Source: an uncultured Planctomycetia bacterium (GTDB lineage Bacteria; Omnitrophota; Gorgyraeia; 2-02-FULL-51-18). From it: a stretch of 64,000 nt of DNA. Both the position numbers and the translations under genes were made by a program. The notes under the pieces are model-generated. The model was not told the DNA's origin. It saw nothing but the letters and a program-made list of their open reading frames with translations, and did not search any database. Positions 12,786 through 55,567 of this stretch are shown here, piece by piece. Where the stretch lies: positions 7,519 to 71,518 of the forward strand of contig CAYSKO010000004.1 in NCBI GenBank assembly GCA_964431835.1, written 5' to 3'. Each line of letters opens with the position of its first letter. The stretch's first letter is position 1.

Positions 12786-12793
12786 CGATTCCT

Positions 12794-23168: not shown

Positions 23169-23223
23169 CGGGTCTCCTAGGTTTAGGACGAAGGACGCAT
23201 CATAACACAGAGCCCGCGGACCA

Positions 23224-31436: not shown

Positions 31437-32009
31437 TCAACGAATCCGATTCAACACGAGCTTAGCGAGCACATCGGCCTCGAGATTGACGCGTGTGCCA
31501 GGTTTAAGGCCCCCCAGCGACGTGACCTTGAGCGTGTGCGGAACGAGGTGGATCCAAAATCCGGGCTTCGAGACCTTGCCGAGCGTGAGACTCACGCCGT
31601 CGACCGTCACCGATCCCTTTTCCACGAGAAAACGCCGGATCGGAGCCGGAAACGACACAAGAGCGCTCATTCCCTTCTTTTCGGGAGTCAAACGCTTCAC
31701 GCGGCCGACGCCGTCCACGTGGCCCAGCACGAAATGTCCGTCCAGGCGGCTCGAAACTTTGAGCGGGCGCTCCAAATTCACGCGGTCCCCGTGTTTTAAA
31801 ATGCCGAGCGCCGTCCGTCGCCGCGTCTCCGCGACAACGTCGAAGCGGAGCGTGCCGGCCGAACGGCCGGCGACCGTAAGGCACGTGCCGTTGACCGCGA
31901 GGCTCGCGCCTTTTTTCAAACGCGCAAGGTTCCGCGGCACTTCGATCTCGAGCCGAGCGCCAGAGAACCCGCGGACTCGACCTGCCGCCTCGACGATGCC
32001 CGTGAACAT
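31437..32009 (-). CDS. ribE: riboflavin synthase subunit alpha
   Basis: 190 aa starting MFTGIVE...; ATG overlaps the ribD stop (TGATG). Confidence 0.88.
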   Translation of the reverse strand: MFTGIVEAAGRVRGFSGARLEIEVPRNLARLKKGASLAVNGTCLTVAGRSAGTLRFDVVAETRRRTALGILKHGDRVNLERPLKVSSRLDGHFVLGHVDGVGRVKRLTPEKKGMSALVSFPAPIRRFLVEKGSVTVDGVSLTLGKVSKPGFWIHLVPHTLKVTSLGGLKPGTRVNLEADVLAKLVLNRIR

Positions 32010-33100
32010 CAGAACTCTCCCCAAACCAGGAGATCCGGACCGAGGGGCCGGATGGTCCACCGGCGGAAACGAACTGCGGATGAAAGTTTCGCTGGGCCGT
32101 CGCCTCCGACGGAACCGACCGCCGCGCGGCCGCCGACGAGAATCGGAGCGACGATGAAGCAAGCTTCGCGGGCGAAACCGCGCGCAAGAACCTCGGCGGT
32201 GACCTCCCCACCGCCTTCGACCAGCGCCCGCACGACCCCGAGTGCGCCGAGTGCACCGAAAAGCTTCGCGACGTCGACGCGGCCGCGGCGGCCGCCCACC
32301 GCCATGATCTCCGCCTTGCCGCGGTAGCGCCGGGCGACCGATGGCGACGGCTTCTTTACAGTCGCGAGGATAACCATTCCCGGAGAGGAAAAAATCTTTG
32401 CGCGTGGGGGCGTGCGGAGCGAGGAATCGAGAATCACTTTGAGCGCCGGGCGGCCCTTCTTCACGCCGCGCGCGTCGAGGCCGGGATCGTCGCGGAGCAC
32501 CGTGTTCACCCCGACAATCACGGCGTCGGAGCCGGCCCGGAGACCGTGCGCGAAGCGCCGCGCTTCGTCGCCGCTGATCCATTTGGACTCGCCGGTGCGG
32601 GTGGCGATCTTTCCGTCCAGGCTCTGCGCGGCCTTGAGCACGACGTAAGGGGTTTTGGTGCGAACCCAGTGGAAGAAGTCGCGGTTCATCGCTTCGCAGT
32701 CGGTGGCGAGCACGCCCGTATCGACGCGAATACCCGCCTTGCGCAAACGCGCGAAACCTTTGCCGGACACGAGCGGATTAGGGTCCTTGCAACCGGCGAC
32801 GACGCGCCATATCCCCGCGGCTTCGAGCAGGTCGGCGCAGGGCGGCGTCTTGCCGTGGTGGGCGCAGGGCTCCAGAGAGACGTAGATCGTGGCGCCCTTC
32901 GAGCGCACGCCGGCGGCGCGAAGCGCCTCAACTTCCGCGTGCGGCCCGCCGTATGCGCGGTGCCAGCCTTCACCGACGATGCGGCCGCCTTTCACGACGA
33001 CCGCGCCGACCATCGGGTTGGGATGCACGAGGCCCAAGCCCCGGCGCGCGAGCTCGAGCGCCCGGCGCATGAAGCGTTCGTCGTGCGCGGAGGGCTTCAT
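32009..33100 (-). CDS. ribD: bifunctional diaminohydroxyphosphoribosylaminopyrimidine deaminase / 5-amino-6-(5-phosphoribosylamino)uracil reductase
   Basis: ATG at 33098-33100; deaminase zinc motifs HAEVEAL and PCAHHGKTPPC; C-terminal reductase domain; 363 aa. Confidence 0.88.
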   Translation of the reverse strand: MKPSAHDERFMRRALELARRGLGLVHPNPMVGAVVVKGGRIVGEGWHRAYGGPHAEVEALRAAGVRSKGATIYVSLEPCAHHGKTPPCADLLEAAGIWRVVAGCKDPNPLVSGKGFARLRKAGIRVDTGVLATDCEAMNRDFFHWVRTKTPYVVLKAAQSLDGKIATRTGESKWISGDEARRFAHGLRAGSDAVIVGVNTVLRDDPGLDARGVKKGRPALKVILDSSLRTPPRAKIFSSPGMVILATVKKPSPSVARRYRGKAEIMAVGGRRGRVDVAKLFGALGALGVVRALVEGGGEVTAEVLARGFAREACFIVAPILVGGRAAVGSVGGDGPAKLSSAVRFRRWTIRPLGPDLLVWGEF

Positions 33101-33107
33101 CGCGAGG

Positions 33108-33557
33108 TTAATCGTTCTTCGCGATCTTGTCGAGGATGCCGTTGACGAACTTGGAGGAATCGGGCTCGCCGTAGCGTTTGGCGAGCTCAACAGCTTCGTT
33201 GATGGCGACCTTCACCGGAAGACCGTCGGTGAAACGCATCTCGAAAGTGGACAGTCTGAGAATATTCCGGTCAACGTACGCCATCCGGCGGATCTCCCAA
33301 TTTTCGGCGAACCGCTCGATTGTCTTGTCGATCTCGTCGAGCTTCTCGAGCGTTCCCCGTACGAGGAGTTCTGTGTACGAACGGACATCCTCGTCGTTTT
33401 TTTCGTGTTCGATCGCGTCGCGCTCGGTTTCGGAGAGCGTGAGCTCTCCCCGGTCCTTCCAAAAATCCATGAGCGCCTCTTCGGCGGTCGAGCGGCTCAC
33501 GTCGACCTGGTAGAGCACCTGCAGGGCGAATTCGCGGCTTCTTGTGCGCTTTCTCAA
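33108..33557 (-). CDS. nusB: transcription antitermination factor NusB
   Basis: Likely TTG at 33555-33557 overlapping the ribH stop (TTGA); product (M)[16 protein letters not shown]..., 149 aa. The track ORF starts 24 codons earlier, inside ribH. Confidence 0.75.
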   Translation of the reverse strand: MRKRTRSREFALQVLYQVDVSRSTAEEALMDFWKDRGELTLSETERDAIEHEKNDEDVRSYTELLVRGTLEKLDEIDKTIERFAENWEIRRMAYVDRNILRLSTFEMRFTDGLPVKVAINEAVELAKRYGEPDSSKFVNGILDKIAKND

Positions 33558-34075
33558 CGCTTTCCCTTCCGGCCGCGCGGTTCGAGGCCGCGGCAGAGAT
33601 TCGCCGTCTCGATCGCGGCGAGCGCCCACTCGCGGCCCTTGTTGGTGTGCTTCACGCCGACGCGGTCGATCGCCTGCTTCACGTTCTCCGCGGGGATCAT
33701 TCCGAGGATCACCGGAATCCCCGCTTCTTTGGAAAGATTCACGAGGCCCGCCGTCGCACCGTTCACGACCTGGTCGAAATGCTTCGTCTCGCCGCGGATC
33801 ACGATCGCGAGCGCGATCACCGCGTCTGGCTTCCCCGAAGCGATGAGCTTGCGTGCCACGAGCGGAATCTCGAACGCCCCGGGCACGTAGGCGACGCGGA
33901 CGTCTTTCTCGCGCGCGCCACTGCGTACGAGCGTGTCGAGAGCGCCGTCCAGGAGCTGGTTCGTCAGGTATTCGTTGAACTGGGACACGACGATCGCTAT
34001 TTTTAAGCCCCGCGCGTCGTACGAACCCTTGAGCCGGCGAACACCGGGAAATTTCTTTTTGCGTGCGTCAGGCAT
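33554..34075 (-). CDS. ribH: 6,7-dimethyl-8-ribityllumazine synthase
   Basis: ATG at 34073-34075; 173 aa; lumazine synthase core ([10 protein letters not shown]...GAFEIP). Confidence 0.88.
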
Positions 34076-35270
34076 GCTCGAGGAGGTGTCCCATCTTCTT
34101 TTTCTTCGTACGCAGGTATTTGCGGTTGTGCTCACCGGGCGTCACTTGAATCGGCACGCGTTCGACGACTTCGAGGCCGTAGCCCTCGAGACCGACGATT
34201 TTCTTGGGATTATTAGTCATGAGCTTGATCTTCTTGATGCCGAGGTCCGCGAGAATCTGGGCGCCCACACCGTAATGGCGCAGGTCCGCGGGGAAACCGA
34301 GGCGCTCGTTCGCCTGGACGGTGTCGAGACCCTCGTCTTGAAGTTGATAAGCCTTGAGCTTGTTGAGGAGGCCGATACCGCGGCCCTCCTGGCGCATGTA
34401 GAGGAGAACGCCCGAGCCCTCCTTCTGGATGTGTTCGAGCGCGCGGTCGAGCTGTTCACCACAGTCGCAGCGCTTCGACCCCAGCGCGTCGCCGGTCAGG
34501 CACTCCGAATGCACCCGAACGAGCGCCGGTTTTTTACCGCCCACATTCCCCTTCACAAGCGCGATGTGGTAATCCTTGTCGACCGTCGACTCGTACGCGA
34601 CGAGCTTGAAATCGCCGTAGCGGTTCGTAAGGCGTGTCTCGACGGCCTTGAAGACGAGCTTGTCTTTTTTTCGGCGGTATTCGATGAGGTCGCGGATCGT
34701 GCAGGTCTTGAGCTTGTGGCGGCGCGCGAACTTCGCGAGCTCGGGCATCCGGGCCATCGTCCCGTCGTCGTTCATGATTTCGCAGATGGCTCCGGCGGTC
34801 TTGAGTCCGGCTAGACGCATCAGGTCCACGCAGGCTTCGGTATGGCCGGCGCGCACAAGGACGCCGCCTTCACGCGCGCGAAGCGGAAAGATGTGGCCGG
34901 GGCGCACGAAGTCGCTTTTCGAGGATTTGGGATCAATTAACGAGCGGATCGTTTTCGACCGGTCGTAGGCCGAGATTCCCGTCGTCACCCCTTTTTTCGC
35001 GTCGATAGAGACGGTCCAGGCGGTCTTGAACTCGTCGCCGTCGCCCTGCACCATCAGGTCGATGCCTAGTTTCGCCAGGCGCTCGGACTCCATCGGCACG
35101 CAAACGATTCCGCGGCCGTGCTTCACCATGAAATTCACGTTCTCCGGCGTCGCGTGCTCGGCGGCGACGACGAGGTCGCCCTCGTTTTCGCGGTCCGCGT
35201 CGTCGACGACGATGACGACGCGTCCTTTTTTTAGGTCTGCCAGGATTTCGGGGATCGAGTGCGGTTTCAC
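34068..35270 (-). CDS. ribBA: bifunctional 3,4-dihydroxy-2-butanone-4-phosphate synthase / GTP cyclohydrolase II
   Basis: 400 aa; RibB half ([14 protein letters not shown]) and RibA half (CDCG zinc site, [10 protein letters not shown]). Confidence 0.9.
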
Positions 35271-35280
35271 GGTCTTCCTT

Positions 35281-36309
35281 TTAGAAATACTCGTTCAGAA
35301 ACTCGGCGGCCTTGCGGCGCGTCGCAGACAAAAGACCTTTTTGCGGACGGAGAGCCGTCCGTGAGTGCAGGCGGTCGGCCGCGAGCAAGAGCCCGGCGAC
35401 AGGAGCCTGCGACGCTTGCGAAAGCCCCTCAACGCCCTGGGGATACGCGCGGCGCGTCGCGATGCCGGAGGAAGCGAACGCTTCGAGTGTGGCCTCATCC
35501 TCGGCGAGGTCCCCGGTCAGGAGAAGCTCCTCGGCGCCGCCCGCTTCGGCGGCGGCTTCGGAGACGGCGGCCGCAAGACGGGCGGCCGTCCCGGTCCGCT
35601 CGCACGCTGCGAACGTGCGGTACGCGGAGACGACGGGCCCCGAGCACGCGAAAACGGTCACGACGTCCCGGCCCACGTCGGCCACCACACGGGTCCCCTT
35701 CGCGCCTTCGGGAAGGACGGCCGTGGCGATCGAGAGGGCCGTCGGGTGCGCGATCGCGGTTCCCACGAGCGCCCGGCGGAGGACGGACTGCCAGGCTTCC
35801 CAGTGCTCGGCCCGGGCCAGAAGAACGTGAAGTGTCACGTCAAGCTTCCGGCCGAATGCCCCGACCGGGTCCGGAACAGCATCCCTATCGTCGATTAGAT
35901 AAGCCACCGGGCGGGAGTAGACGATCCGCCGGTCGAACTCTTCGGCCATGCGCTCGGCCGAACGGCACGCGTCGGCGACATCGGAAGCCGCAATCTCCCC
36001 TTCGCCGGCGAGAACTTTCGACCCCGCGATCTTCACCGAGCGCATGCCGGGATCGTCGAAATTATAATGGATCTCATCCACGGTGAAGCCCGCTTGACGC
36101 TCGGCCGCGGCCAGTGCCTCGGCCACGGATTCGGCGGCGTCGCCCACGTGCACAACTTCTCCGCCGCGAACACCGCTCGAATCCGCCCGCCCCGTGGCTG
36201 CCACGCGCAAACCCGCCTCGGTCTTCTCGGCCAGAACAACCGTCACTGCCTCGGCGCCGAAATCCAGCGCCGCGACCGCGTTTCCGCGGATGTTTTTCGG
36301 AAGCTTCAT
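35281..36309 (-). CDS. ftsA: cell division protein FtsA (actin-like ATPase, short form)
   Basis: 342 aa; aligns by eye to FtsA through the 1A/1C/2A subdomains; ends in an amphipathic ...[12 protein letters not shown] tail; sits immediately after ftsQ. Confidence 0.65.
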
Positions 36310-37115
36310 CGGGGCCCGATGACGACGTCGTCGAAGCGCAGGTCGATGTATTTGATCTTGGCGCGGTCGAGGCCCACAGTTTTGAGTGTCTGGTCCAGGA
36401 TCTTGAGGCGTTCAATGAAATGGCCGCCGCCGATCCGGATCTCGACGTCGCCGTCAACGATGAGGGAAACGTTGTTCGGGTCGCGCACGTCGATCTTGTT
36501 GAGCGAGTGCCCTTTCAGCACGTCCGAGCTCTTGAGAATCTCCGAGAGTTTGACCGCTTTCTTCGCGTTCGGGTCCGACACGGTGACGCCGACGAAAAGG
36601 CCGGGCTTCGGGGTCTTTACGCCTTCGATGACGGTGAGATTCTTGAACGGTGACGCGGACGACCCCGGTAAAAGCACCATGTCCTTGTCGATCTGGACGA
36701 AACGGCCGAAGTCGACTTGGGCTGAGGGAGTCCTTCGCTTCAGCACCACCTCGACGCGGTTGGGCAGTACACGCTTCACGCGGACTTCCTTGAACTCGGG
36801 GTGCTTGCGCTTGATGACCTGCTGGACGTTCACGAGGTCGAGGTTGATCAGATTCTCGCCAGGGCGAAGCTCACAGAATTCGAACGCTTGGCGGTTCGTG
36901 AGGGTGCCGGCGTTCAGGACCCGCACTTCTTCGAGCCCGAAGGTGGGGGAATTCACCGCGTAGGCGAAGACGCCGCCGAAGAGGAGCACGACGAACGCCA
37001 GCGAGAGGAGAAACTGAAAGGAGCCACGGACGAGGCTCCACAGCGCGGCCGCGACCTTCACGGAAACGGCGGCTCCGTTTTTTCTCTTCACTCGCGTTTT
37101 CAAAGGTTTAACCAT
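36306..37115 (-). CDS. ftsQ: cell division protein FtsQ/DivIB
   Basis: 269 aa; N-terminal TM, POTRA and beta domains. Confidence 0.75.
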   Translation of the reverse strand: MVKPLKTRVKRKNGAAVSVKVAAALWSLVRGSFQFLLSLAFVVLLFGGVFAYAVNSPTFGLEEVRVLNAGTLTNRQAFEFCELRPGENLINLDLVNVQQVIKRKHPEFKEVRVKRVLPNRVEVVLKRRTPSAQVDFGRFVQIDKDMVLLPGSSASPFKNLTVIEGVKTPKPGLFVGVTVSDPNAKKAVKLSEILKSSDVLKGHSLNKIDVRDPNNVSLIVDGDVEIRIGGGHFIERLKILDQTLKTVGLDRAKIKYIDLRFDDVVIGPR

Positions 37116-38034
37116 CGACCCCCACCCTCGCCCGGTTCAAAGACAGTTCCAAGATTTTAACACAAAGCGCGGGAAAGTCGATTCCCGCCGCCTTGGCCGC
37201 TTTGGGGAGCAGGCTCTTGCCCGTGAGGCCGGGAATGGTGTTGATCTCGAGCACGTACGGCTCCCGGTCGTCTTCCGACAGGATCACGTCGACGCGGCCC
37301 ATGACCTCGCAGCCGATCGCGCGGTAAGCCGTGAGCGCCGCGGACCCGACGCGGGCGGCTTCGTCGGCCGAAAGACGCGCCGGCGCCTCGTAGCGCGTGC
37401 CCGACTCTCCGTACTTCGCCTCGTAATCGTAAAATTTACGGCCAGGGATCACCTCCACCACCGGCAGCGCCTCGTCGCCCAAAATGCCGACCGTCAGCTC
37501 GCGGCCCTTCACGAAGCGATCCACCACCGCGTGGTCTGAGAAACGGAACGCCTCCTCGAGCGCCGCCTGAAAACCCGACGGGTCGCGCACGATCGTCACG
37601 CCACAGCTCGACCCGGACGTCGCGGGCTTCACGACGAACGGCGCGCCGAACGGCGCGCGGCCGGGAACAGCGTCTTTAGCGATGACGCGGAAATCGGGAA
37701 CGCGGATGCCCGCCTCCTTAAAAATGGCTTGGGCGCGCGACTTGTCGAAAGAGCGCTCGCTCGCAGCGGCCCCCGCCCCCGTGTAACGGATGCCCTCCGC
37801 CTCGAGGAGGCGTTGGATCTGCCCGTCCTCGCCGAAGGTTCCGTGAAGCGCGATGAACGCGGCCTTGGCTCCCGAGGCGCGAAGCTCCGAAAGGAAATCC
37901 CCAACGGGATCGACCACGACGACTTCGAATCCGGCGGAACGCAGCGCTTCGGCCACGGCCTTTCCGGACACGAGCGAGACTTCGCGTTCGCACGACGGGC
38001 CGCCCGCGAGGACGGCGATTTTTTTGGGAATCAC
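37108..38034 (-). CDS. ddl: D-alanine--D-alanine ligase
   Basis: GTG at 38032-38034 overlapping the murC-murB stop (GTGA); product (M)IPKKIAVLAGGPS...; ATP-grasp; 309 aa. The track ORF 37108..38238 over-extends. Confidence 0.85.
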   Translation of the reverse strand: MIPKKIAVLAGGPSCEREVSLVSGKAVAEALRSAGFEVVVVDPVGDFLSELRASGAKAAFIALHGTFGEDGQIQRLLEAEGIRYTGAGAAASERSFDKSRAQAIFKEAGIRVPDFRVIAKDAVPGRAPFGAPFVVKPATSGSSCGVTIVRDPSGFQAALEEAFRFSDHAVVDRFVKGRELTVGILGDEALPVVEVIPGRKFYDYEAKYGESGTRYEAPARLSADEAARVGSAALTAYRAIGCEVMGRVDVILSEDDREPYVLEINTIPGLTGKSLLPKAAKAAGIDFPALCVKILELSLNRARVGVDG

Positions 38035-40316
38035 AGGATCTTCACCTCGGTTTCGAGATCGACGTCGAATTTTTTCTTCACTTCCTCCTGCACCTCGCGG
38101 ATGAGCCGCACCACGTCCTCGGAAGACGCGCCGCCCAGATTCACGATGAAATTGGCGTGACGCGCGGATACCTGCGCGCGCCCGACGGTCCGCCCCTTCA
38201 GACCCGCATCGTCGATAAGCTTCCCGGCGCTCGCGCACTGCGCGTTGTCCGGGTTCTTGAACATGCAGCCCGCGCTCGGATGCTGGAGATCCTGGGTTTT
38301 GAAGCGGTAGTCGCGGTATTCCTCCAGGCGCTTCAACGTCTCGGCTTTTTCGGCTGCAGGCAGGCGGAACGCCGCTTCCGCGATCACGACGTCCGTGAGT
38401 CCAGAAGCCCGGTAACGGAACGGGATTTCCTCGCGCTTCATCGCGAACGGCCGGCCGTCGAAACGCACCCCGGCCACTCTCTCGACGCGCGCGTCGATTG
38501 ATTGCTTATGGCTTCCCGCGTTCATCGCGACGGAACCGCCGACGTTCCCCGGGATGCCCGCGAGGAATTCGCAGCCACCTAAGCTCCGCTCCACAGCGAA
38601 CTGGATGAACACGGTGTTCGGTACGCCCGCGCGCGCGACCACGAGGCCGTCCGTCTCCACGCGGATCTCCTTCCAATACGGCCCAGCGAGATGGATCACC
38701 GCGCCGTCCACCCCGTCGTCGGGCGCGACGAGATTGGACCCCGCGCCGATCACCTGGACGGAGATGCCGCTCCGGCGGCAGAAGTCGAGGGCGCGTGCCA
38801 AGTCGTCGACATCCTCCGGTTCGAGCCAGTACTCGGCCGGCCCACCGACCTTCAGCATCGTATGCTTGGAGAGAGGCTCCTCCCGGAGCGTCTTGCCCCG
38901 GAATCCTGGAAAAAGAGGCGCGCGGTCGGGCGACGGCGCGCGGCGCTCGGCAAGCCATTCGGCCGCCTTGTGCGCGATCTGATAAACGTCGCCGGCGCCG
39001 AGCGCGAGAAAAAGATCGCCGGGCTTAAGCTCGGCGAGCACCGCCTCTTCGAGCTTCGCGCGTTCCACGTAGCGCGCGTCGGCGTGGCCGGTCGCCGTGA
39101 CCGCCGCGGCGAGGCGCTCCCCGCTCACGCCCTCGATCGGCGTCTCGCTTGCGGCGTAGACGTCTGTCACGAAAAGCTTATCCACGTCGCCGAAGCTCAC
39201 GGCGAACCCTTCGAGAAAGTCGCGCGTGCGCGTATAGCGGTGCGGCTGGAACGCGGCGAAAAGGCGACGGGGCTTAAGGGCGCGTGCGGCGGCCAGCGTC
39301 TTCTGAAGCTCGGTGGGATGGTGAGCGTAATCGTCAACGATCGTGAATTCGGCGTCTTCGAAACGCACGTCGAAGCGGCGGCCGGCGCCGAGGTATTTCC
39401 CGAGGGCGCGCGAGATCGTCTCGAAGGGAATCCCGATTTTAAGTCCCACGCCGATCGCCGCGAGCGAATTGAGCACGTTGTGCTTACCGATGATGCGAAG
39501 ATGCACGATCCCGAGGCACAGGCCGTCCTTCCAGGCCCGGTACGAGACACCCCGTTTTCCTCCGGGACATTCGACGACGTCGGTCGCGTAGATGCCGGCT
39601 TTGCGGGGCTCGAGCCCGTAGAGGGTCGCGCGGCGCAGGCGCTCACCCGCGAGCTTGGCCACGCGCGGATCGTCGCCGCAGCCAAACCACTCGCCCTCGC
39701 GCGGAAGGCGCTCGATGAACGCGCGGAATGCGTCCTCGACACGCTCCACCGTGCCGAAATGGTCCAGGTGCTCGGCTTCCACGTTTGTGACGACCGCAAG
39801 GTGGGGGGCGAAGCGCAGGAACGACGAGTCGCTCTCGTCGGCCTCGATGACGATCTCGGGGCCGCTGCCCACGACGGCGTTCCCGCCGAACGAGATCACG
39901 AGCCCGCCGACGACGATCGACGGATCGCGGCCCGCCTCCTGCAATACGGTGCCGACGAGCGCGGTGGTCGTGGTCTTTCCGTGCGTGCCAGCGATCGCGA
40001 TGGTGCGCTTGTCGCGGCAGATGTCGGCGAGCGCCTCGGCGCGGTGCATGATCTGGAGTCCCCTCTCGCGCGCCGCGCGGCGCTCGGGATGATCCTCAGG
40101 GATCGAAGAGGAATAAACGACCACGTCCGCGCCGTTGATATGCGAGGCGTCGTGTCCGATCATGATCCGCATGCCGGAGCGCTCCATCGACGTCAGAAGT
40201 TCGGTCTTCTTCACGTCGCTGCCCTGCACGTTCCAGCCGCGCGACTGGTAGATTCGCGCGATGCCGCTCATGCCGATGCCGCCGATACCGATCAGATGCA
40301 CCCGTTTGGCGTTCAT
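38031..40316 (-). CDS. murC: fused UDP-N-acetylmuramate--L-alanine ligase / UDP-N-acetylenolpyruvoylglucosamine reductase (MurC-MurB fusion)
   Basis: 761 aa; residues 1-470 are MurC (GIGGIGMSG, GTHGKTTTT); residues 480-761 are MurB (FAD-binding, GAGSNL). Confidence 0.85.
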   Translation of the reverse strand: MNAKRVHLIGIGGIGMSGIARIYQSRGWNVQGSDVKKTELLTSMERSGMRIMIGHDASHINGADVVVYSSSIPEDHPERRAARERGLQIMHRAEALADICRDKRTIAIAGTHGKTTTTALVGTVLQEAGRDPSIVVGGLVISFGGNAVVGSGPEIVIEADESDSSFLRFAPHLAVVTNVEAEHLDHFGTVERVEDAFRAFIERLPREGEWFGCGDDPRVAKLAGERLRRATLYGLEPRKAGIYATDVVECPGGKRGVSYRAWKDGLCLGIVHLRIIGKHNVLNSLAAIGVGLKIGIPFETISRALGKYLGAGRRFDVRFEDAEFTIVDDYAHHPTELQKTLAAARALKPRRLFAAFQPHRYTRTRDFLEGFAVSFGDVDKLFVTDVYAASETPIEGVSGERLAAAVTATGHADARYVERAKLEEAVLAELKPGDLFLALGAGDVYQIAHKAAEWLAERRAPSPDRAPLFPGFRGKTLREEPLSKHTMLKVGGPAEYWLEPEDVDDLARALDFCRRSGISVQVIGAGSNLVAPDDGVDGAVIHLAGPYWKEIRVETDGLVVARAGVPNTVFIQFAVERSLGGCEFLAGIPGNVGGSVAMNAGSHKQSIDARVERVAGVRFDGRPFAMKREEIPFRYRASGLTDVVIAEAAFRLPAAEKAETLKRLEEYRDYRFKTQDLQHPSAGCMFKNPDNAQCASAGKLIDDAGLKGRTVGRAQVSARHANFIVNLGGASSEDVVRLIREVQEEVKKKFDVDLETEVKIL

Positions 40317-41416
40317 CGGGCCGCATTCTCCAAGATGAAATCGGCCAACCGCACGCGTGCCTGGGCGGCGGGGGCGGTTTCGGGAAACGGGGGGCCGGGA
40401 GCGTCCAGATAACGGCCGACGAGCGATGCGAGCGTCGCCGGCGTCAGCGTCTCCTGCTCGACCACGACCGCGTCGCGGCCGCGGGCGTAGGCGCGCGCGT
40501 TGTGGCGCTGGTGGCCGTCGCCGAAAGGATACGGAATCAGGATGGTGGGGATGCGTTTCACCGCGACTTCCGCTAGAAAAGTCGCGCCCGCGCGGCCCAC
40601 CGCGACGTCGGCCGCGCCGTAAGCCAGGTCCATCCGATCAAAGAAGGAATAAGCTTTCGAGCGCAGGCCCATCGCCGCGTAGCGCCGCTCCGCCTCTTCG
40701 GGTTTCATGCGCCCGCAAAGATGAAGCACCTGCGTTCGCTCCTTGAGCGCCGGGACCCACGTCTCGGCCGCCGCGAGAAAAAGAACGTTGATCGATTCCG
40801 CTCCCTGGCTCCCGCCCAGAACGAGCACGGTACGGCGGTCCGGCGCGAAACCGAAGAACTCCAGAGCTTCGCGCCTGCAGTCGCGCTCAATCGACGAACG
40901 GATTGGGTTGCCCGTCACGCGAACGCGGGGCCCCCGACCGAGGCGGCCGCCGGTTTCCTCGTAGGAGAGCGCCACTCCGCGCGCCACGCGCGCGAGAACG
41001 CGGTTGGCGAATCCAGGCGCGACGTTCTGCTCGTGAATCAGCGTCGGGATCCCCATGAACCGCGCAGCGACAACCGCCGGAAACGAGACGTAGCCGCCGA
41101 AACCGACCACCACGTGCGGTTTCTCCTCGCGCAGGAACTCCGCGCAGCGGCGGAAACCCGACGCCAGGCTCTTCAGGAAGGACGGTCGTAAAAGAGATTT
41201 AAGGCCCGCGAACGGGGCCGAGTCGATCGGGCGCGCCGCGCCGTGCGGCGCGTTCTTCAAGATCGCGCTTTCGATGTCCTTTTTTCCGCAAACGTACGTG
41301 ATGCGGGCGTCGGGACGGCGCCTGAGAATCTCCTCCGCCACGGCGATCGCGGGAAAGATGTGGCCGCCGGTCCCGCCGCAGGCGAAAACCACTCGGAGCG
41401 GAGAAGATGGCTGCAT
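40313..41416 (-). CDS. murG: undecaprenyldiphospho-muramoylpentapeptide beta-N-acetylglucosaminyltransferase
   Basis: Internal ATG at 41414-41416 gives MQPSSPLRVVFACGGTGGHIFPA..., 367 aa. The track ORF over-extends into ftsW. Confidence 0.85.
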   Translation of the reverse strand: MQPSSPLRVVFACGGTGGHIFPAIAVAEEILRRRPDARITYVCGKKDIESAILKNAPHGAARPIDSAPFAGLKSLLRPSFLKSLASGFRRCAEFLREEKPHVVVGFGGYVSFPAVVAARFMGIPTLIHEQNVAPGFANRVLARVARGVALSYEETGGRLGRGPRVRVTGNPIRSSIERDCRREALEFFGFAPDRRTVLVLGGSQGAESINVLFLAAAETWVPALKERTQVLHLCGRMKPEEAERRYAAMGLRSKAYSFFDRMDLAYGAADVAVGRAGATFLAEVAVKRIPTILIPYPFGDGHQRHNARAYARGRDAVVVEQETLTPATLASLVGRYLDAPGPPFPETAPAAQARVRLADFILENAAR

Positions 41417-41432
41417 GATGAGCCCGATTGTA

Positions 41433-42563
41433 CTACGGAATCGAGGAGGCGGCCACCGGCTTTTCCCCTCGAAGCGCCTCGTCGGCGAGATTGAGGAGAA
41501 GTCCGACAGCCGCGAGGTTCGCCAGGAGCGCAGAACCACCGTAGCTGATGAACGGGAGTGAAAGGCCCTTTGTCGGTAGCGCACCGGTCGACACGCCGAT
41601 GTTGATCGCCGCCTGGAGCCCGATGAGTGTTACGAGGCCGAGCCCGACGAGCTGACTGAAGCGGTCCTTCGCCCGAAACACGATCACCATCCCCGCAAAG
41701 AGGAACACGATGAAGAGGACAACGACGGAGCTCGTTCCGAGGAATCCCAGCTCCTCCCCGATGATCGAGAAGATGAAATCCGTGTGCGACTCGGGTAGAT
41801 AGAAGAGCTTCTGCTGGGAGCGGCCGAGCCCGACGCCGATAAGCCCGCCCGAACCCAGCGCCAGGAACGACTGCACGATCTGGAACCCCGCGCCCTTCGG
41901 GTCTTCCCAGGGATTGAAGAACGCTAGAAGACGCTTGCGGCGGTAGGGTTTGGCGAGCATCGCGAACGCCAGGAGCGGCACGGCCGAGAAAACGATCGCC
42001 GAAAGATGCGCGATGCGGAAACCCGCGACGAAGAACATCACGAAGCAGACGAAAGACACCGTGACCGCGGTGCCGAGATCCGGCTGCAAGAAAACGAGTC
42101 CCGCGCAGAACCCGAGCGTCGCCAGCGCCGGAGCGACCGTGTATTTCAAGTCGTGCAGCGTCGCCTGCTTGCGCTCGAGGAAATCGGCCATGTAAAAGAT
42201 GATCGCGATCTTGAGAAACTCGGAGGGCTGGAAGCTGAAGCCGAGGAACTTGAACCAGCGGCGCGCGCCGCCGGCGGCCGCTCCGATTCCGGGGATAAGG
42301 ACAAGAACAAGAAGGACGATAGCCACTCCCAGGAGCGGCTTCGCGCGCCGGCGGACGGCGGCGAGGTCCATGCGCGCTAAGAGACGCGCGAGCAGAGCGC
42401 CCAGGACCAGATACACGAGATGGCGTTTCAAAAAATACGCGCTGTCCTTCATTTTCTCGTGCGCATAGATCGCGCTCGCGCTGTAGATCATGACGATCCC
42501 GATCGCGACAAGCGTCATCGCCGCCCCGATGAGAAGGGTCTTCGCCCTCCGGAGAGCGTCCAT
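41433..42563 (-). CDS. ftsW: peptidoglycan glycosyltransferase FtsW (SEDS family)
   Basis: 376 aa polytopic SEDS protein between murD and murG. Confidence 0.85.
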   Translation of the reverse strand: MDALRRAKTLLIGAAMTLVAIGIVMIYSASAIYAHEKMKDSAYFLKRHLVYLVLGALLARLLARMDLAAVRRRAKPLLGVAIVLLVLVLIPGIGAAAGGARRWFKFLGFSFQPSEFLKIAIIFYMADFLERKQATLHDLKYTVAPALATLGFCAGLVFLQPDLGTAVTVSFVCFVMFFVAGFRIAHLSAIVFSAVPLLAFAMLAKPYRRKRLLAFFNPWEDPKGAGFQIVQSFLALGSGGLIGVGLGRSQQKLFYLPESHTDFIFSIIGEELGFLGTSSVVVLFIVFLFAGMVIVFRAKDRFSQLVGLGLVTLIGLQAAINIGVSTGALPTKGLSLPFISYGGSALLANLAAVGLLLNLADEALRGEKPVAASSIP

Positions 42564-43915
42564 CAGCCGCCCGCCAGCTCGCGGAAAACCTTTTTAAAGG
42601 CTTCCCCTCTTTGCTCGAACGAACTGAACTGGTCGAAGCTCGTGCACATCGGGGACAGGAGCAGCGTGTCTCCGGGAGCGGCGGCCTCGAACGCCGCGCG
42701 CACCGCGTCGGCGAAAACGTGTTCTTGGCGGACCTTTCGGAAACGCCGCCACGACGCGGCCATCTTCTGGCGTGCCTCGCCGTACAGCACCGCCGTCTTC
42801 ACTTTTTTCTCGAGCAGCGTCTCAATGGCCTCGAACGAAACTCCCTTGTCCCGGCCTCCAGCGACGAGAACGACCGACCCCTGGACCGCCTCGATCGCCG
42901 CGCGCGTGGAATCGATGGTCGTCGACTTCGAATCGTTAACGAAACGCACCCCGCGGACCTCCCCGAGAGGCTCGATGCGGTGCTCGAGCGTCCGGAACGA
43001 GCCGGCGGTCTTGTCGAGAGATTCGGGCGTCGCGCCGTAGCGGAGGGCGAGTGCGGAAGCGGCCATCAGGTTTTCCAAGTTGTGTTCCCCTTCAAGTGGC
43101 GAGCGGTCGCGCCGAAAAAGTGGGCGCTCCTTCCCCTTTTCAGAAACCACCACGTATCCGGCTTTGACGAAGACGCCCTCCTTGAGGGGAAGTTTCGAGA
43201 AATAGACGACCTTCGGCGCCACGCGGCGCGCCATGCGGCAGACGACGCGGTCGTCGTGATTGAGAACCAAAAGATCCGCGCCGCGCTGATTGGCGAAGAT
43301 GCGCTTCTTCGCGCGTACGTAATTCTCGAAAGTCTTGTGACGGTCGAGGTGGTTCGGGCTAACGTTCAAGACTGCGGCGGCGTCGGGGCGGAGAGTCGGG
43401 GAGTCTTCAAGCTGAAACGAACTCAGTTCAAGTACGACGACGGTCTTTGCGTCCACGTCACCGAGCGCCGAGAGAAACGAGAAACCGACGTTCCCGCAGA
43501 GCACGCTCTTTTTACCCGCGTCGGCCAGCATCCGGTGAAGAAGGTGGCTCGTCGTGGTTTTGCCGTTCGAGCCCGTGATGGCCGCAATGCGCCCGGGGCA
43601 GAAATTGGCGGCCAGTTCGATCTCGCTGATGACGGGGATGCCCTTCGCGCGCGCGGTGGCCAGCGGCAGGCTCTCCCTCGGCACGCCCGGGCTCGTCACG
43701 ACGAGATCGCTGCCCAGGACAAAACCCTCGGTGTGCCGACCGGTTTCGGCGGCTACCCCGAGACTACGGAGATAACCCGCGTTCTCGAGCACCTCCTTCT
43801 TCTCCGAACCGTCGGTCGCGGACACGTGGGCCTTTCGATCGGCGAGAAACTTCGCCGCGGCGAAGCCGCTGCGGCCTAGGCCGACGACCGTGACTTTCTT
43901 CCCTTCGAGCTTCAT
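42563..43915 (-). CDS. murD: UDP-N-acetylmuramoylalanine--D-glutamate ligase
   Basis: ATG at 43913-43915 overlaps the mraY stop (ATGA); MKLEGKKVTVVGLGRSG..., 450 aa. The track ORF 42563..44527 over-extends. Confidence 0.88.
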   Translation of the reverse strand: MKLEGKKVTVVGLGRSGFAAAKFLADRKAHVSATDGSEKKEVLENAGYLRSLGVAAETGRHTEGFVLGSDLVVTSPGVPRESLPLATARAKGIPVISEIELAANFCPGRIAAITGSNGKTTTSHLLHRMLADAGKKSVLCGNVGFSFLSALGDVDAKTVVVLELSSFQLEDSPTLRPDAAAVLNVSPNHLDRHKTFENYVRAKKRIFANQRGADLLVLNHDDRVVCRMARRVAPKVVYFSKLPLKEGVFVKAGYVVVSEKGKERPLFRRDRSPLEGEHNLENLMAASALALRYGATPESLDKTAGSFRTLEHRIEPLGEVRGVRFVNDSKSTTIDSTRAAIEAVQGSVVLVAGGRDKGVSFEAIETLLEKKVKTAVLYGEARQKMAASWRRFRKVRQEHVFADAVRAAFEAAAPGDTLLLSPMCTSFDQFSSFEQRGEAFKKVFRELAGG

Positions 43916-45000
43916 TGGAGCTTGAGCGTCGCCAGGCCGAACAAAGAAAGGATGATCGAGACGATCCAAAAGCGGATCACGACTTTCGTTTCCGTGAGGC
44001 CCTTCAGCTGAAAATGATGGTGGATCGGCGCCATGAGAAAGATGCGCTTTTTGCGGGTCTTGTAACTGCCAACCTGCAGGATCACCGAGAGCGCTTCCAT
44101 CACGAAAATACCGCCGACGATGGGGAGTGCGAATTCTTTCTTCGTGAAGATCGCTACCGACCCGAGCGCGCCGCCGAGTGCGAGAGACCCGACGTCCCCC
44201 ATGAACACGGTCGCCGGGTGGGAGTTGAACCAGAGGAAACCCATTCCCGCCCCCGCGAGCGCGGCGCAGAAGACGGTCAGCTCCCCGGCTCCGGGAATGA
44301 ACGGGATTTGCAAGTAGTCGCTGAAGATCGCGTTGCCGGCGACGTAAGCGAACACCGAGTAGGTGAGCGTGATCATGATCGTGCAGCCGATGGCCAAACC
44401 GTCCAGACCGTCGGTGAGGTTCACGGCGTTGGACGCGCCCATGATGACAATCGCGACGAAGGGCACATACAGCGCCCCCATGAGCCATGTCCAGTCCTTC
44501 ACAAACGGAATCGCGACGTTGGACCAAGTAGGGTCCTCGAGATAAAGGAAAAGACCGATTGCGAGGCCGATGACCCCCTGCCCCAGGAGCTTGAGCCGCC
44601 CTGCGAGGCCTTTGGAGTTTTTTTTCGTGAGCTTCAAGTAATCGTCGAGAAAGCCGACGCCGCCGAGCCAGAGCGTCGTGAAAAGACAGATCATGACGTA
44701 ACGGTTCGTGAGATCGACCCAGAGGAGCGTGGAGGCGGTCACCGCTCCCAGGATCAAAAGCCCGCCCATTGTCGGCGTCTTGTCCTTCCCCTTATGGGCC
44801 TCGTAAAGCTGGGAGAATCCCTCGCGCTTGATTGTCTGTTTGAGGTCGAGGTCGGAGAGCCACCGTATCACCTTCGGTCCGATCACGAGACTGATCACGA
44901 ACGCGGTGATCGCCGCCGCGGCGGCGCGGAAAGTGATGTACCGCACGACGTTAAAACCGAAGAACCAGTCTCTTAGCGGGTAGAGGAGGTGGTAAAACAC
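43912..45000 (-). CDS. mraY: phospho-N-acetylmuramoyl-pentapeptide transferase
   Basis: 362 aa polytopic; MraY motifs (DDxxD-like, HHHFQ). Confidence 0.9.
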   Translation of the reverse strand: MFYHLLYPLRDWFFGFNVVRYITFRAAAAAITAFVISLVIGPKVIRWLSDLDLKQTIKREGFSQLYEAHKGKDKTPTMGGLLILGAVTASTLLWVDLTNRYVMICLFTTLWLGGVGFLDDYLKLTKKNSKGLAGRLKLLGQGVIGLAIGLFLYLEDPTWSNVAIPFVKDWTWLMGALYVPFVAIVIMGASNAVNLTDGLDGLAIGCTIMITLTYSVFAYVAGNAIFSDYLQIPFIPGAGELTVFCAALAGAGMGFLWFNSHPATVFMGDVGSLALGGALGSVAIFTKKEFALPIVGGIFVMEALSVILQVGSYKTRKKRIFLMAPIHHHFQLKGLTETKVVIRFWIVSIILSLFGLATLKLQ

Positions 45001-46355
45001 TCGAACACCTTTTCCATCTGCATGCCGCGCGAGCCCTTCACGAGGACCCGGTCGCCGGCCTGAACGGTTTCTTTGAGGAATTTCCCGGCCTCGGCGCTCG
45101 ACTTCGCGTGACGGATGCGCTGGGGGTCGAAGCCGTGTTTGAGTGCCTCGTCGACGAGGTGTGCCGAAAGAGGTCCGGTCGCGATGACGTAATCGAAGAG
45201 AAGCTCAGCGATGAGCGCGCCGAGCTGGCGGTGAAGCTCCTCGGAATGAGAGCCGAGCTCAAGCATGTCGCCGCAGACGACGCCTTTCCTCTCGCGGATC
45301 TTAAGTTCCCGGAGCGTTTCGAGCGCGGCGCGGAAGGATGCTGGGTTCGAGTTGTACGAATCATCGATGAAGTAGATTCCGGCCAGGGTCTTTGGCGAGA
45401 GGCGACCGGGCACGGGCTTGAATGTGGAGAGTGCCTTTTTCACGGAGTCATCGTCGACGCCTAGCGCGGCGGCGATCGCGATGGCGAACTGGCAGTTCTG
45501 CACGTTGTGCCGCCCCACGAGAGGCGTCTCGTAAAGAACGGCTCCGATATGGAAGGAAGTCCCCTTTTCGTGGCACCAGACCTGCTCTGCAATCACGTCA
45601 CAGCCTTCCTTCGACAGACCGACCCGGACCACGCGGTGCACACCGCTCTTTACACCGGAGAGATTGGGATCGTGCCCGTTCAAAATGATCACGCCGCCCC
45701 GGTCGATGGCTTTAAGGAGGGAAAGTTTTTCCTCGCGGACACCGTCGACCGACTTCAAGCCCTCGAGATGGGACGGCGCGACGAGCGTGATCGCGCCGAT
45801 CTGCGGCGAGGCGATCGAAGCCAGCCGCTCGATCTCGCCCGGGAGGTTCGTCCCCAGCTCGAGGATGACCGCCTCGTGCGAGGCGTCGAGTTGGAGAAGC
45901 GTTTTGGGCACGCCGATGAGATTGTTCTCGGTGCCGCGGTTCTTCAAAACTTTGAGCTTCTGCGAAAGGACGTGCGCGACGAGCTCTTTCACAGTCGTCT
46001 TGCCGGAGCTTCCAGTGATCCCTACGACCGGAACGCGGAAGCGCAGGCGCCAGGCCTTCGCCAGGTCGCCGTAAGCCGCGAGCGTGTCCTTCACTTCGAC
46101 AAACTCGGCGGTCTTCTTGAGTTCCGCGGTGACACGCTTCGTGTCCGAGACAACGCAGGTACGCGCGCCCTTTTCGATGGCCTCCTTCAGGAAGTCGTGG
46201 CCGTCGAAGGACGGCCCTTTGAGGGCGAAGAAGACGTCGTCCTTCTCGATGGTGCGCGTGTCGGTGGAGACGCGATTCACGGGGCGGGCGTCGTCGATCG
46301 CGCCGAGCGGTTTCCCGTTCACGGCACGGACGATCTCCGAGAGTTTAATTTCCAC
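44973..46355 (-). CDS. murF: UDP-N-acetylmuramoyl-tripeptide--D-alanyl-D-alanine ligase
   Basis: Probable GTG at 46353-46355 (RBS GAGAGGG), overlapping the end of murE; Mur ligase P-loop GSSGKTT. The track ORF start at 46427 lies inside murE. Confidence 0.8.
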   Translation of the reverse strand: MEIKLSEIVRAVNGKPLGAIDDARPVNRVSTDTRTIEKDDVFFALKGPSFDGHDFLKEAIEKGARTCVVSDTKRVTAELKKTAEFVEVKDTLAAYGDLAKAWRLRFRVPVVGITGSSGKTTVKELVAHVLSQKLKVLKNRGTENNLIGVPKTLLQLDASHEAVILELGTNLPGEIERLASIASPQIGAITLVAPSHLEGLKSVDGVREEKLSLLKAIDRGGVIILNGHDPNLSGVKSGVHRVVRVGLSKEGCDVIAEQVWCHEKGTSFHIGAVLYETPLVGRHNVQNCQFAIAIAAALGVDDDSVKKALSTFKPVPGRLSPKTLAGIYFIDDSYNSNPASFRAALETLRELKIRERKGVVCGDMLELGSHSEELHRQLGALIAELLFDYVIATGPLSAHLVDEALKHGFDPQRIRHAKSSAEAGKFLKETVQAGDRVLVKGSRGMQMEKVFECFTTSSTR

Positions 46356-47805
46356 GCAGGACCCTCTCGGCTTCCTCGCGGTCGGAAAAAGGAAGCATCT
46401 CCGCGCCGACAATCTGCGTGCGTTCATGGCCTTTGCCGGCCAAGATTACGATGTCGCCCGCGCGGGCGGCCAAGAGTGCCTGGCGAATCGCTTTGCGCCG
46501 GTCGAGCACGACCGCGTGCGGGAACGCGTGCGGGAAACCGGCGACGATCTCGTCGGCGATCGCGCGGGGGTTTTCGGAGCGAGGGTTGTCCGACGTCACA
46601 ATCACCGAGTCCGCGAGCGCTGCCGCGACGGCGGCCATCCGGGGACGTTTGGTGCGGTCGCGGTCTCCGCCGCAGCCGAAGACGAGGATGAGCTTGCCGC
46701 GTTTGTAGGGTTGAAGGCTTCTCAAGACGTTCTCCAAGCCGTCCGGCGTGTGCGCGAAATCGACGTACACGCCGAATTCCTGTCCGCCGTCGATGGACTC
46801 GAGCCGGCCGGGCACGCCCGAAAACGTGCCAAGCGCTTTCGCGGCGGCGTGCGGGTCGAACCCGAGCGCGGCCGCCGCCCCGACGGCCGCGAGCGCATTC
46901 AAAACGTTGTGGCTCCCGATCAGCGGAAGATCCACCGCCGTGCGGCCGCTTCTATAAAGGAAGTCGAACGTCGTGCCGCCCGTTCCCGGCCGGACGTTCG
47001 CGGCGGCGAGATCCGAGCCGGCCGAAACGCCGTAGGTCAGCACTTTCGAGCGCGTCATGCCGCAGAGACGTTTTCCGTGTGCGTCGTCGGCGTTCAGCAC
47101 GGCGGTCTGGCGTGCGCCCAGCGAAAGAAAAAGGCGGGCCTTTGCCTCGAAATACTTCTCGAGCGTCCCGTGGTAGTCGAGATGGTCCTGGGTGAGGTTG
47201 GTGAACACCGCCGCGTCGAAGTCGATGCCTGCGGTGCGCCGCTGGTCGAGGGCGTGCGATGAAGTTTCCATGACCGCGTGCCCGCAGCCGGCAGCGACCA
47301 TTTCGGCTAGCATCTCCTGGAGTCGCAGCGGGCCCGGGGTCGTTTCGACGGCCGGGATGTCCTTCCCCGCGTAGCGGTAGCTGACGGTCCCGATGACGCC
47401 GCACGGCTTGCCGGCCGCCTTGAGGATGTGTTCGAAAAGATAACTCGTCGTGGTCTTCCCGTTCGTGCCGGTAACAGCCACCGTCTTCATTTTCTTGGCG
47501 GGATACCCGTAAAACACGGCGGCCAGTCTAGCGGCGGCCAGGCGGCCGTCTCCGACCGTGAGAAACGGCACCCCGACAGGAACGTCCACACGCGCGCCGT
47601 CCCCGATCACCGCGACCGCGCCGCGTTCGAGCGCCTCGCGCACGAACTGCGCGCCATCGGCCTTCACGCCCCGGATCGCCACGAAAACGAAGTCACGTCC
47701 CACTTTCCGGGAATCGCACTCGAGCCCGAGAATGGGACGGTCCGGCAGCGCCGAGACGCCCAGCTCCGGACACGCCTCCTGGACGAGCTTCTTGAGTGAA
47801 ATCAT
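46345..47805 (-). CDS. murE: UDP-N-acetylmuramoyl-L-alanyl-D-glutamate--2,6-diaminopimelate ligase
   Basis: 486 aa; GTNGKTT P-loop; DAP-type DNPR motif (SDNPRSE); ATGA overlap with ftsI. Confidence 0.88.
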   Translation of the reverse strand: MISLKKLVQEACPELGVSALPDRPILGLECDSRKVGRDFVFVAIRGVKADGAQFVREALERGAVAVIGDGARVDVPVGVPFLTVGDGRLAAARLAAVFYGYPAKKMKTVAVTGTNGKTTTSYLFEHILKAAGKPCGVIGTVSYRYAGKDIPAVETTPGPLRLQEMLAEMVAAGCGHAVMETSSHALDQRRTAGIDFDAAVFTNLTQDHLDYHGTLEKYFEAKARLFLSLGARQTAVLNADDAHGKRLCGMTRSKVLTYGVSAGSDLAAANVRPGTGGTTFDFLYRSGRTAVDLPLIGSHNVLNALAAVGAAAALGFDPHAAAKALGTFSGVPGRLESIDGGQEFGVYVDFAHTPDGLENVLRSLQPYKRGKLILVFGCGGDRDRTKRPRMAAVAAALADSVIVTSDNPRSENPRAIADEIVAGFPHAFPHAVVLDRRKAIRQALLAARAGDIVILAGKGHERTQIVGAEMLPFSDREEAERVLRGN

Positions 47806-49665: not shown

Positions 49666-50019
49666 CTACCGCGAACTTTCCTTGGCCTCGGCTCTCGCCG
49701 TGCCCATGAACAGTTTGCCGAACACCTGCGGGCGCGCAACCGCGGCGTGCGACTTGCGCACTCCCGGCATCACCAGCGTCTGCCACTGCTTCGGCGACTC
49801 GAGCTGGATCCGCTGAGCCTGCAAACGCCGCTCGAGAGTATGCGGCGCTTTCAGTCGAGCGATATTGTACTTGAGGGCTCTACCGCGGTCAAGCGCCTGG
49901 AGCTTCGTTTCCTCGATTTTTCGGATGTCGTAGCCGATCTTAACCGCTTCCACCTCGGCGTAGACATAAAAGAGAGAGGCGAGCGTCGCCAGAGCCAGTC
50001 CGAACCCGAAACGCTTCAT
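49666..50019 (-). CDS. ftsL: cell division protein FtsL
   Basis: 117 aa bitopic coiled-coil protein between rsmH and ftsI. Confidence 0.7.
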   Translation of the reverse strand: MKRFGFGLALATLASLFYVYAEVEAVKIGYDIRKIEETKLQALDRGRALKYNIARLKAPHTLERRLQAQRIQLESPKQWQTLVMPGVRKSHAAVARPQVFGKLFMGTARAEAKESSR

Positions 50020-53936: not shown

Positions 53937-53939
53937 GGC

Positions 53940-55464: not shown

Positions 55465-55490
55465 TTGCCCTTTCTCTAAGTTAGAAAAAG

Positions 55491-55567
<77 letters not shown>

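Follow-up and report, generated by a model that had tools for sequence, protein, structure and literature searches.

A 64-kb stretch of metagenomic DNA from an uncultured bacterium (contig CAYSKO010000004.1, positions 7,519 to 71,518; hereafter the window, to whose own numbering the coordinates below refer) carries a cluster of genes for division and the cell wall (dcw) in which ftsA is followed by the riboflavin gene ribBA in place of ftsZ. Has ftsZ moved elsewhere in this genome, or does the lineage divide without it, and if so, what is left for FtsA to do? An earlier note on this DNA had left the choice between a relocated ftsZ and an atypical division machinery. Our analysis favors the second, given the conservation of the junction, the loss of subdomain 2B from FtsA, and the assignment of relatives to phyla described as FtsZ-less. 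It is probable (roughly 0.6 by our estimate) that the lineage lost ftsZ and kept a remodelled ftsA, whose product has given up FtsZ tethering and retained an adaptor role. The elements at the center of the question are the following.

35281..36309, minus strand: short FtsA, 342 amino acids (aa); ATG start, TAA stop at 35283-35281
35271..35280, minus strand: ftsA-ribBA spacer AAGGAAGACC, 10 nt, with Shine-Dalgarno-like AAGGAAG
34068..35270, minus strand: ribBA, 400 aa, GTG start, full length

The two open reading frames (ORFs) and the 10-nt spacer lie exactly as the earlier note had placed them, ribBA directly following ftsA. The assignment of the latter as a bifunctional RibBA is secured by DHBP_synthase (297 bits), GTP_cyclohydro2 (259 bits) and NF006803 (643 bits, cut-off 569).

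Identity of the 342-aa protein

The 342-aa protein is a true, derived FtsA homologue by sequence, fold and position. Its only Pfam match is SHS2_FTSA (PF02491), with 47.2 bits against the cut-off of 25.4, and the FtsA domain PF14450 does not match it. The NCBIfam model TIGR01174 scores 99.7 bits, below its equivalog cut-off of 175.85, and the match is confined to profile positions 2-210 of 371. When the window was searched with E. coli FtsA by tblastn, the short FtsA was barely detected (E 3.8), so that profile methods were needed.

The AlphaFold2 model, built from a 26-sequence alignment, has pLDDT 87.8 and pTM 0.84. Compared with the PDB by Foldseek, its best 19 matches are all FtsA (E 2e-25, query TM-score 0.65-0.80), and the entry 4A2A is among the structural matches. 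PilM comes second (E 1e-17 to 1e-12, TM-score 0.53-0.66), and MreB is outside the top 50.

The comparison of FtsA, PilM and MreB profiles proposed in the earlier note thus comes out for FtsA, both the short length and the assignment being borne out. The PilM identity was rejected, as neither PF11104 nor TIGR01175 matches the protein, the Foldseek E-values are weaker, and the neighbors are ftsQ and ribBA. The MreB identity was rejected likewise, since the MreB_Mbl profile (PF06723) gives no match and no MreB structure ranks among the 50 best.

The short FtsA family and its missing subdomain

A word-indexed search of 5.8 billion proteins yielded one close relative of the window FtsA. With the profile made of these two sequences, the same 5.8 billion proteins gave 16 members of 331-352 aa scoring 250-660 bits, cleanly apart from canonical FtsAs, which score at most 87 bits. 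An exhaustive hidden Markov model search covered 1.84 billion representatives clustered at 50% identity. Its best 150 matches comprise 60 full-length short proteins (318-361 aa, a single aligned stretch; 44 of them at 280 bits or more and 16 at 143-220 bits), 17 fragments, and 73 FtsAs of canonical length (at least 380 aa, at most 160 bits, mostly aligned in two stretches). Across the 16 members, which are 34-45% identical to the window protein, 35 alignment columns are invariant. Judging by these sequences, the short FtsA is a distinct, widely conserved short family, and its constant length, invariant residues and conserved position, in at least 60 clusters, argue for function.

Alignment of the family profile with PDB sequences covers residues 3-235 and 314-392 of E. 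coli FtsA, while residues from about 236 to 313 have no counterpart. By this alignment, the missing segment is subdomain 2B, the one that binds the FtsZ tail. The well-known 2B positions of the E. coli protein, R286 and R300, lie in this segment. In the model, the 2B segment is reduced to a single helix (238-255). Moreover, the distance between the phosphate-2 and adenosine motifs is 30-36 residues in the short members versus 78-103 in 10 canonical FtsAs. Subdomains 1A, 1C and 2A and the C-terminal helix are retained, with the following parts delimited in the window.

35821..36042, minus strand: subdomain 1C (SHS2 insert, residues 90-163); SHS2_FTSA 47.2 bits; identity 0.53
35539..35604, minus strand: 2B remnant (residues 236-257, single helix); from the alignment gap and the model; identity 0.16
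35284..35334, minus strand: C-terminal helix of residues 326-342 (...FLNEYF), a candidate for membrane targeting

Conservation is uneven along the protein. The best-conserved part of the family is 1C (mean pairwise identity 0.53), followed by the C-terminal helix (0.48) and 1A (0.44-0.46), and the least conserved one is the 2B remnant (0.16).

The nucleotide-binding motifs are altered in all 16 members. In particular, the phosphate-1 motif D[IV]G[ST]xK is replaced by DFG[A/S..][E/D], the phosphate-2 motif D[IL]GGGxT by DxGxD, and the adenosine motif TGG[GA] by TG[D/E], while the 10 canonical FtsAs in the joint alignment keep the canonical motifs. The replacement aspartates D215 and D267 are invariant or nearly so across the family, as would be expected of a newly acquired constraint rather than of drift. 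The short FtsA probably lacks canonical ATP binding, hydrolysis and polymerisation, as far as these motifs can tell.

The 2B-less FtsA seems to be a new form within a protein family that is itself known. In the open-access literature we found no description of it, of its motif changes, of the size of the family, or of the rib and yggS junctions described below, but only presence/absence tables.

Absence of ftsZ from the window and from related loci

The earlier note had stated that no FtsZ- or tubulin-like ORF occurs in the 64 kb, and all searches agree with it. The best six-frame tblastn match of E. coli FtsZ in the window has E 0.5, the tubulin motifs G[GA]GT[GA][ST]G and GGGTG are absent from its six frames, and none of its large ORFs matches Pfam Tubulin or FtsZ_C, the labels used for murF to murG being precomputed ones. 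The flanks, covered for about 10 kb on one side and about 7 kb on the other, contain no FtsZ either. The same holds for 18 short-FtsA loci from two subfamilies (224 kb, partly redundant), which gave no FtsZ hits. In contrast, all 10 canonical-FtsA control loci (Alistipes, Rikenellaceae), fetched in the same scan, have FtsZ directly downstream of ftsA (E<=1e-34).

Conservation of the ftsA-ribBA junction

A scan of genome and metagenome contigs with the two-sequence alignment produced no relatives, while the contig search with an 8-sequence alignment led to four labelled ones. The arrangement murF ... murC/B, ddl, ftsQ, short FtsA, ribBA, ribH, nusB, ribD, ribE is conserved as a string that longer contigs extend to bamD, lptE, holA, murJ and uvrC. 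Synteny from murF to uvrC is shared by loci L004 and L006-L011 and by the gene tables of ENA contigs, and the string turns up in JGI and Logan assemblies made independently, in the gene tables from ENA and in the genomes of four GTDB species representatives. Between the stop of the short FtsA and the start of ribBA, each of the eight sequenced loci has a gap of -1 to 19 nt. These relatives are diverged, with a GC content of 41-65% and identities to the window proteins of 37-46% for the short FtsA, 61-68% for FtsQ, 77-82% for RibBA and 72-78% for MraY. As the junction recurs in diverged relatives, it is a lineage trait and not a one-off rearrangement.

There is a second, more divergent subfamily of short FtsAs (343-349 aa, C-terminus SFVQEYF), also encoded after ftsQ (L027, GCA_023247995.1, JAHFFK010000001, 3282-4325; L029, 6207-7247). 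At these loci the genes downstream are yggS, proC and yggT, which follow ftsZ in many bacteria, and again there is no ftsZ. Most likely, the rib genes came to abut ftsA after the loss of ftsZ.

The FMN riboswitch (RF00050) is absent from the window at the Rfam gathering score and from positions 34800-37300 at E<=10. No promoter- or terminator-like sites were found on the coding strand between ftsA and ribBA by a scan whose E. coli-type promoter consensus says little for this lineage. The claim that the junction holds neither an FMN riboswitch nor a promoter is therefore in line with both scans. A sigma-70-like hexamer pair, a match to the consensus and no more, was seen just upstream of ftsQ:

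37154..37181, minus strand: sigma-70-like hexamer pair, 9/12 consensus matches, extended -10 TG

Transcripts of the division genes probably account for at least part of the expression of the rib genes, through read-through and coupled translation and free of FMN-riboswitch control, as the geometry of the junction suggests. A minor peculiarity of riboflavin regulation in this clade is thus a rib operon that is joined to the division operon and has no riboswitch.

FtsQ coupling and the C-terminal helix

The ftsQ stop overlaps the short-ftsA start (ATGA), and both the overlap and the position are conserved in relatives. In the cytoplasmic N-terminal tail of FtsQ (37040-37115, minus strand), a basic motif reads MV[KR]P[VLI]KTK and leads into a stretch of Lys and Arg; the N-terminal peptide of FtsQ is MVKPLKTRVKRK. 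The motif MV[KR]PxKTK is conserved in the ribBA clade (the window, L004, L006-L009, L011). As a speculation, this basic tail may be considered a candidate ligand of the FtsA 1A-1C cleft. The possible analogy is PilM, which binds a short N-terminal cytoplasmic peptide of the bitopic PilN in its 1A-1C cleft.

In the model, a helix (327-341) comes after a disordered linker, and the tail ...KAxSFINEYF, placed like the membrane-targeting helix of FtsA, is conserved across the family. Of the amphipathic C-terminal tail claimed in the earlier note, the conserved helix at the expected position stands, while its amphipathic character is only moderately supported, given the modest hydrophobic moment. 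By the placement of this helix, membrane binding via the tail of the short FtsA is plausible.

Lineage and published record

The four labelled relatives are named as Candidatus Omnitrophota, uncultured Planctomycetia (two of them) and Candidatus Eisenbacteria. Three of the four thus carry names (Omnitrophota, Planctomycetia) published as FtsZ-less, which favors atypical division. The window organism is, on circumstantial evidence, most probably a diderm of the Planctomycetes-Verrucomicrobia-Chlamydiae (PVC) type, belonging to Omnitrophota.

The published tables for Omnitrophota are FtsZ-negative and FtsA-positive, so the profile is known, and the absence of ftsZ is probably an already-known trait of the lineage. 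In the table of Pende et al., FtsA is present and FtsZ is NA in three of five Omnitrophica genomes (PMC8178401). Seymour et al. 2023 (PMC10066038, Supplementary Note 1) report Omnitrophota to lack ftsZ, with the exception of one archaeal contaminant, and the portion of their annotation tables at hand contains the ftsA identifiers K03590 and TIGR01174 but neither of those for ftsZ, K03531 and TIGR00065. For Planctomycetota, reviews describe a loss of ftsZ throughout and of ftsA in the majority of species (PMC12673574).

The murC-murB fusion is present in all ribBA-clade relatives and in L029, while L027 has a separate murB of 309 aa. In Verrucomicrobium spinosum, murB and murC stand under one locus tag as a seeming fusion (PMC12283558), a hint at the PVC group. 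When those ORFs of the window that lacked an annotation were scanned with NCBIfam for PVC markers, nothing useful came out. Some 10 kb outside the start of the window, L022 (14624-15760) carries the alanine racemase gene alr, which according to reviews has disappeared from most Planctomycetota along with ftsZ, ftsB and ftsA.

Proposed role of the short FtsA and alternative explanations

In canonical FtsA, the C-terminal peptide of FtsZ is bound by conserved 2B residues (PMC8998562). Longitudinally, filaments are joined through the IIA-IIB contact, FtsN docks with its cytoplasmic tail in the 1A-1C cleft, and attachment to the membrane is by the C-terminal amphipathic helix (PMC7613929). As 2B both receives the C-terminal peptide of FtsZ and takes part, as one of the two sides, in the longitudinal contact, the short FtsA would no longer tether FtsZ. 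In the scenario that we prefer, ftsZ would have been lost in the lineage; its canonical slot, without ftsZ in every sequenced relative, is filled by ribBA-ribH-nusB-ribD-ribE in one clade and by yggS-proC-yggT in the second. Having given up FtsZ tethering and, probably, canonical ATP binding, hydrolysis and polymerisation, the short FtsA would most likely act as a membrane-attached cytoplasmic adaptor, with its 1A-1C face engaging the late divisome proteins FtsQ, FtsW and FtsI, and septal peptidoglycan synthesis would be organised without a Z-ring.

A bolder and distinctly tentative form of this proposal, which we would hold as a possibility that may well fail, assigns to the 2B-less, probably nucleotide-free FtsA the role of the primary cytoplasmic organiser of an FtsZ-independent, peptidoglycan-based divisome in a phylum-level lineage (Omnitrophota or a neighbor). 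It would be anchored by its C-terminal helix and would recruit or activate FtsQ(L) and FtsWI via the 1C face, possibly by the basic tail of FtsQ.

Several observations weigh against the loss of ftsZ and the adaptor role. The search for ftsZ spans about 81 kb of this genome and at most 10 kb of flank per side in the relatives, and the four labelled relatives bear three different phylum-level names. Henriques et al. 2025 place Omnitrophota with lineages of highly conserved dcw genes, ftsZ included (PMC12283558), which is at odds with the FtsZ-less surveys PMC8178401 and PMC10066038. Compared with 0.57 for the E. coli helix, the tail has a hydrophobic moment of 0.26-0.49, which does not stand out from shuffled sequences. 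No gene of the string evolves faster than the short FtsA, and this could mean relaxed constraint. With D16, D211, G213 and G266 retained, some nucleotide or metal binding is possible. The E. coli-type consensus of the promoter scan belongs to the same list.

The extent of the searched sequence and the grouping by Henriques et al. are what speaks for an ftsZ relocated elsewhere in the genome, so that division would be FtsZ-based and FtsZ would be served by the short FtsA or by another tether (SepF, ZipA-like). However, the FtsZ-tail site, 2B, is deleted in every family member, an adjacent ftsZ is lacking at 18 of 18 loci from two subfamilies and present at 10 of 10 canonical controls, and two independent surveys are FtsZ-negative for Omnitrophota apart from contaminants or the outlier OLB16; relocation is thus unlikely, though it deserves some weight. 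Somewhat less credit is due to repurposing of the short FtsA outside division, either as a PilM-like platform for another envelope machine or as a riboflavin-linked regulator. PilM is indeed the next-best structural match, and one clade has kept the short FtsA tightly coupled to the rib genes, but the gene always follows ftsQ in the dcw cluster, pilNOPQ-type partners are absent from the flank gene tables and similarity maps, and PilM and MreB profiles do not match. As the second subfamily is not beside rib genes, linkage to them does not characterise the family as a whole.

That the short FtsA is a decaying relic, left with no role after the loss of ftsZ, would agree with its fast evolution and with the degenerate nucleotide-binding motifs. 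It is nevertheless hard to reconcile with an intact ORF of constant length (318-361 aa) in at least 60 clusters at 50% identity, with 35 invariant columns across 16 members, the conserved position and ATGA overlap with ftsQ, a confidently folded model, and the invariant substitutions D215 and D267, and we consider it very improbable. An assembly or binning artefact joining unrelated contigs, conceivable given the metagenomic origin of the sequence, is effectively refuted by the identical arrangement that JGI and Logan assemblies show independently of each other and that diverged relatives show in their ENA and NCBI assemblies, and has next to no weight. Loss of ftsZ with retention of a remodelled, adaptor-type FtsA remains the explanation that we favor.

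The FtsZ-less division of walled bacteria has long posed a puzzle, with Chlamydiae and Planctomycetes as its main objects of study, and the short FtsA offers a specific, clonable candidate for FtsZ-independent division. It is predicted not to bind FtsZ or ATP, to bind the membrane by its tail, and to contact FtsQ, FtsW or FtsI via 1C. It may be regarded as a natural separation-of-function allele, in which 1A, 1C, 2A and the tail would still be selected without FtsZ tethering. If the bolder proposal is true, an actin-family adaptor has outlived the tubulin-family ring, and it would mark the minimal cytoplasmic requirement for septal wall synthesis.

Gene order of the dcw cluster and other features of the window

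The remaining genes of the cluster and of the rib operon are listed below.

51167..51607, minus strand: mraZ, the first dcw gene (matched by E. coli MraZ in tblastn at E 7e-20; its counterpart in locus L025 has Pfam MraZ)
50016..50918, minus strand: rsmH (mraW), Pfam Methyltransf_5, 367 bits
49666..50019, minus strand: tentative ftsL-like small bitopic protein, 117 aa, with a transmembrane segment and a coiled coil, in the expected position
47802..49577, minus strand: ftsI (PBP3-type transpeptidase), Pfam Transpeptidase (250 bits) and PBP_dimer
40313..47805, minus strand: murE, murF, mraY, murD, ftsW, murG, from the called genes of the identical JGI contig L001
38031..40316, minus strand: murC-murB fusion, 761 aa, a single ORF with Pfam Mur_ligase N, M and C, FAD_binding_4 and MurB_C
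37108..38034, minus strand: ddl, Pfam Dala_Dala_lig_N and Dala_Dala_lig_C
36306..37115, minus strand: ftsQ, Pfam POTRA_1 and FtsQ_DivIB_C
31437..34075, minus strand: ribH, nusB, ribD, ribE, Pfam DMRL_synthase, NusB, dCMP_cyt_deam_1 with RibD_C, Lum_binding

For murF to murG, the Pfam labels are those precomputed for L001 (Mur_ligase, Glycos_transf_4, MurD-like_N, FTSW_RODA_SPOVE, Glyco_transf_28), while murE was assigned from the ORF list and by similarity to relatives. No family match was obtained for the ftsL-like ORF (49666..50019). The order mraZ, rsmH, ftsL-like, ftsI, murE, murF, mraY, murD, ftsW, murG, murC-murB, ddl, ftsQ, ftsA matches the canonical dcw order at every position but the last, which is occupied by ribBA instead of ftsZ. 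The textbook order from mraZ to ftsQ and ftsA that had been read from the window is hence upheld by Pfam, tblastn and the called genes.

The RNA genes identified elsewhere in the window are the following.

53936-54315, minus strand: bacterial class A RNase P RNA, 170 bits
55494-55567, 55587-55660 and 63343-63415, minus strand: three tRNA genes

Among other protein-coding genes, prfB (21516-22620, minus strand) contains the programmed +1 frameshift site of release factor 2 at about 22549-22566 (GGGAGG TAT CTT TGA C), and the ORF list holds only its 315-aa downstream frame. ClpC (828 aa), a McsB-type arginine kinase (350 aa) and a McsA-like activator (303 aa) are encoded together at 8630-13145 (minus strand), and the organism bearing this ClpC/McsB set also has the diderm envelope genes bamD, lptE, mlaDEF, lolCDE-like and lnt. 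A CT398/CdsZ-like coiled-coil zinc-ribbon protein (54751-55500, minus strand; Pfam CT398_CC and Zn_ribbon_9) adjoins rpoD-dnaG; it scores 78 bits, below the cut-off, with NF047363, a model named after the chlamydial protein. The fused protein of major facilitator superfamily and spermidine-synthase type at 61242-62840 (minus strand; NF037959, 272 bits) is called by the gene caller as 515 aa and has no exact-sequence match, so that the GTG start of the 61242-62840 frame is probably wrong. Two ORFs belong to no Pfam family, namely 7191-8633 (minus strand, 480 aa), with only a weak GspN-like N-terminal match, and 22620-23507 (minus strand, 295 aa), which overlaps the 3' part of a hybrid sensor kinase gene and could be spurious.

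Comparison with known systems

With canonical FtsA (TIGR01174; PDB 7Q6D, 7Q6F, 4A2A, 3WQU) the short FtsA shares the actin-like fold with the 1C (SHS2) insert, the position after ftsQ in the dcw cluster, and a flexible linker that leads into a C-terminal helix; the ending ...EYF is likewise present in some canonical FtsAs. It differs in being about 65-70 residues shorter, with 2B reduced to one helix, in the three altered motifs, and in having no ftsZ next to its gene. PilM has an FtsA-like fold with a 1C-type subdomain as well, but its neighbors pilN, pilO and pilP were not seen in the inspected short-FtsA flanks.

Typical rib operons consist of the same enzymes (ribBA, ribH, ribD, ribE) and commonly show the ribH-nusB linkage. 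Unlike the operons governed by an FMN riboswitch, the one studied here has neither a riboswitch nor room for a leader, and a division gene lies 10 nt away.

At the level of lineages, the published profile of Omnitrophota (OP3) has the same FtsA-present, FtsZ-absent state, and one of the window relatives is labelled Omnitrophota. In the passages and tables searched, the Omnitrophota papers (PMC8178401, PMC10066038) give presence and absence only, and no description of the 2B deletion, of the motif changes or of the rib and yggS junctions was found there. Planctomycetota and Chlamydiota are also of the PVC type, with near-complete dcw and peptidoglycan genes and no ftsZ (PMC12673574, PMC12283558). 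However, Chlamydiae divide by MreB and FtsK, and FtsA is reported as missing too from most planctomycetes and all chlamydiae, whereas here the dcw cluster is intact, in textbook order, and a remodelled FtsA has been kept.

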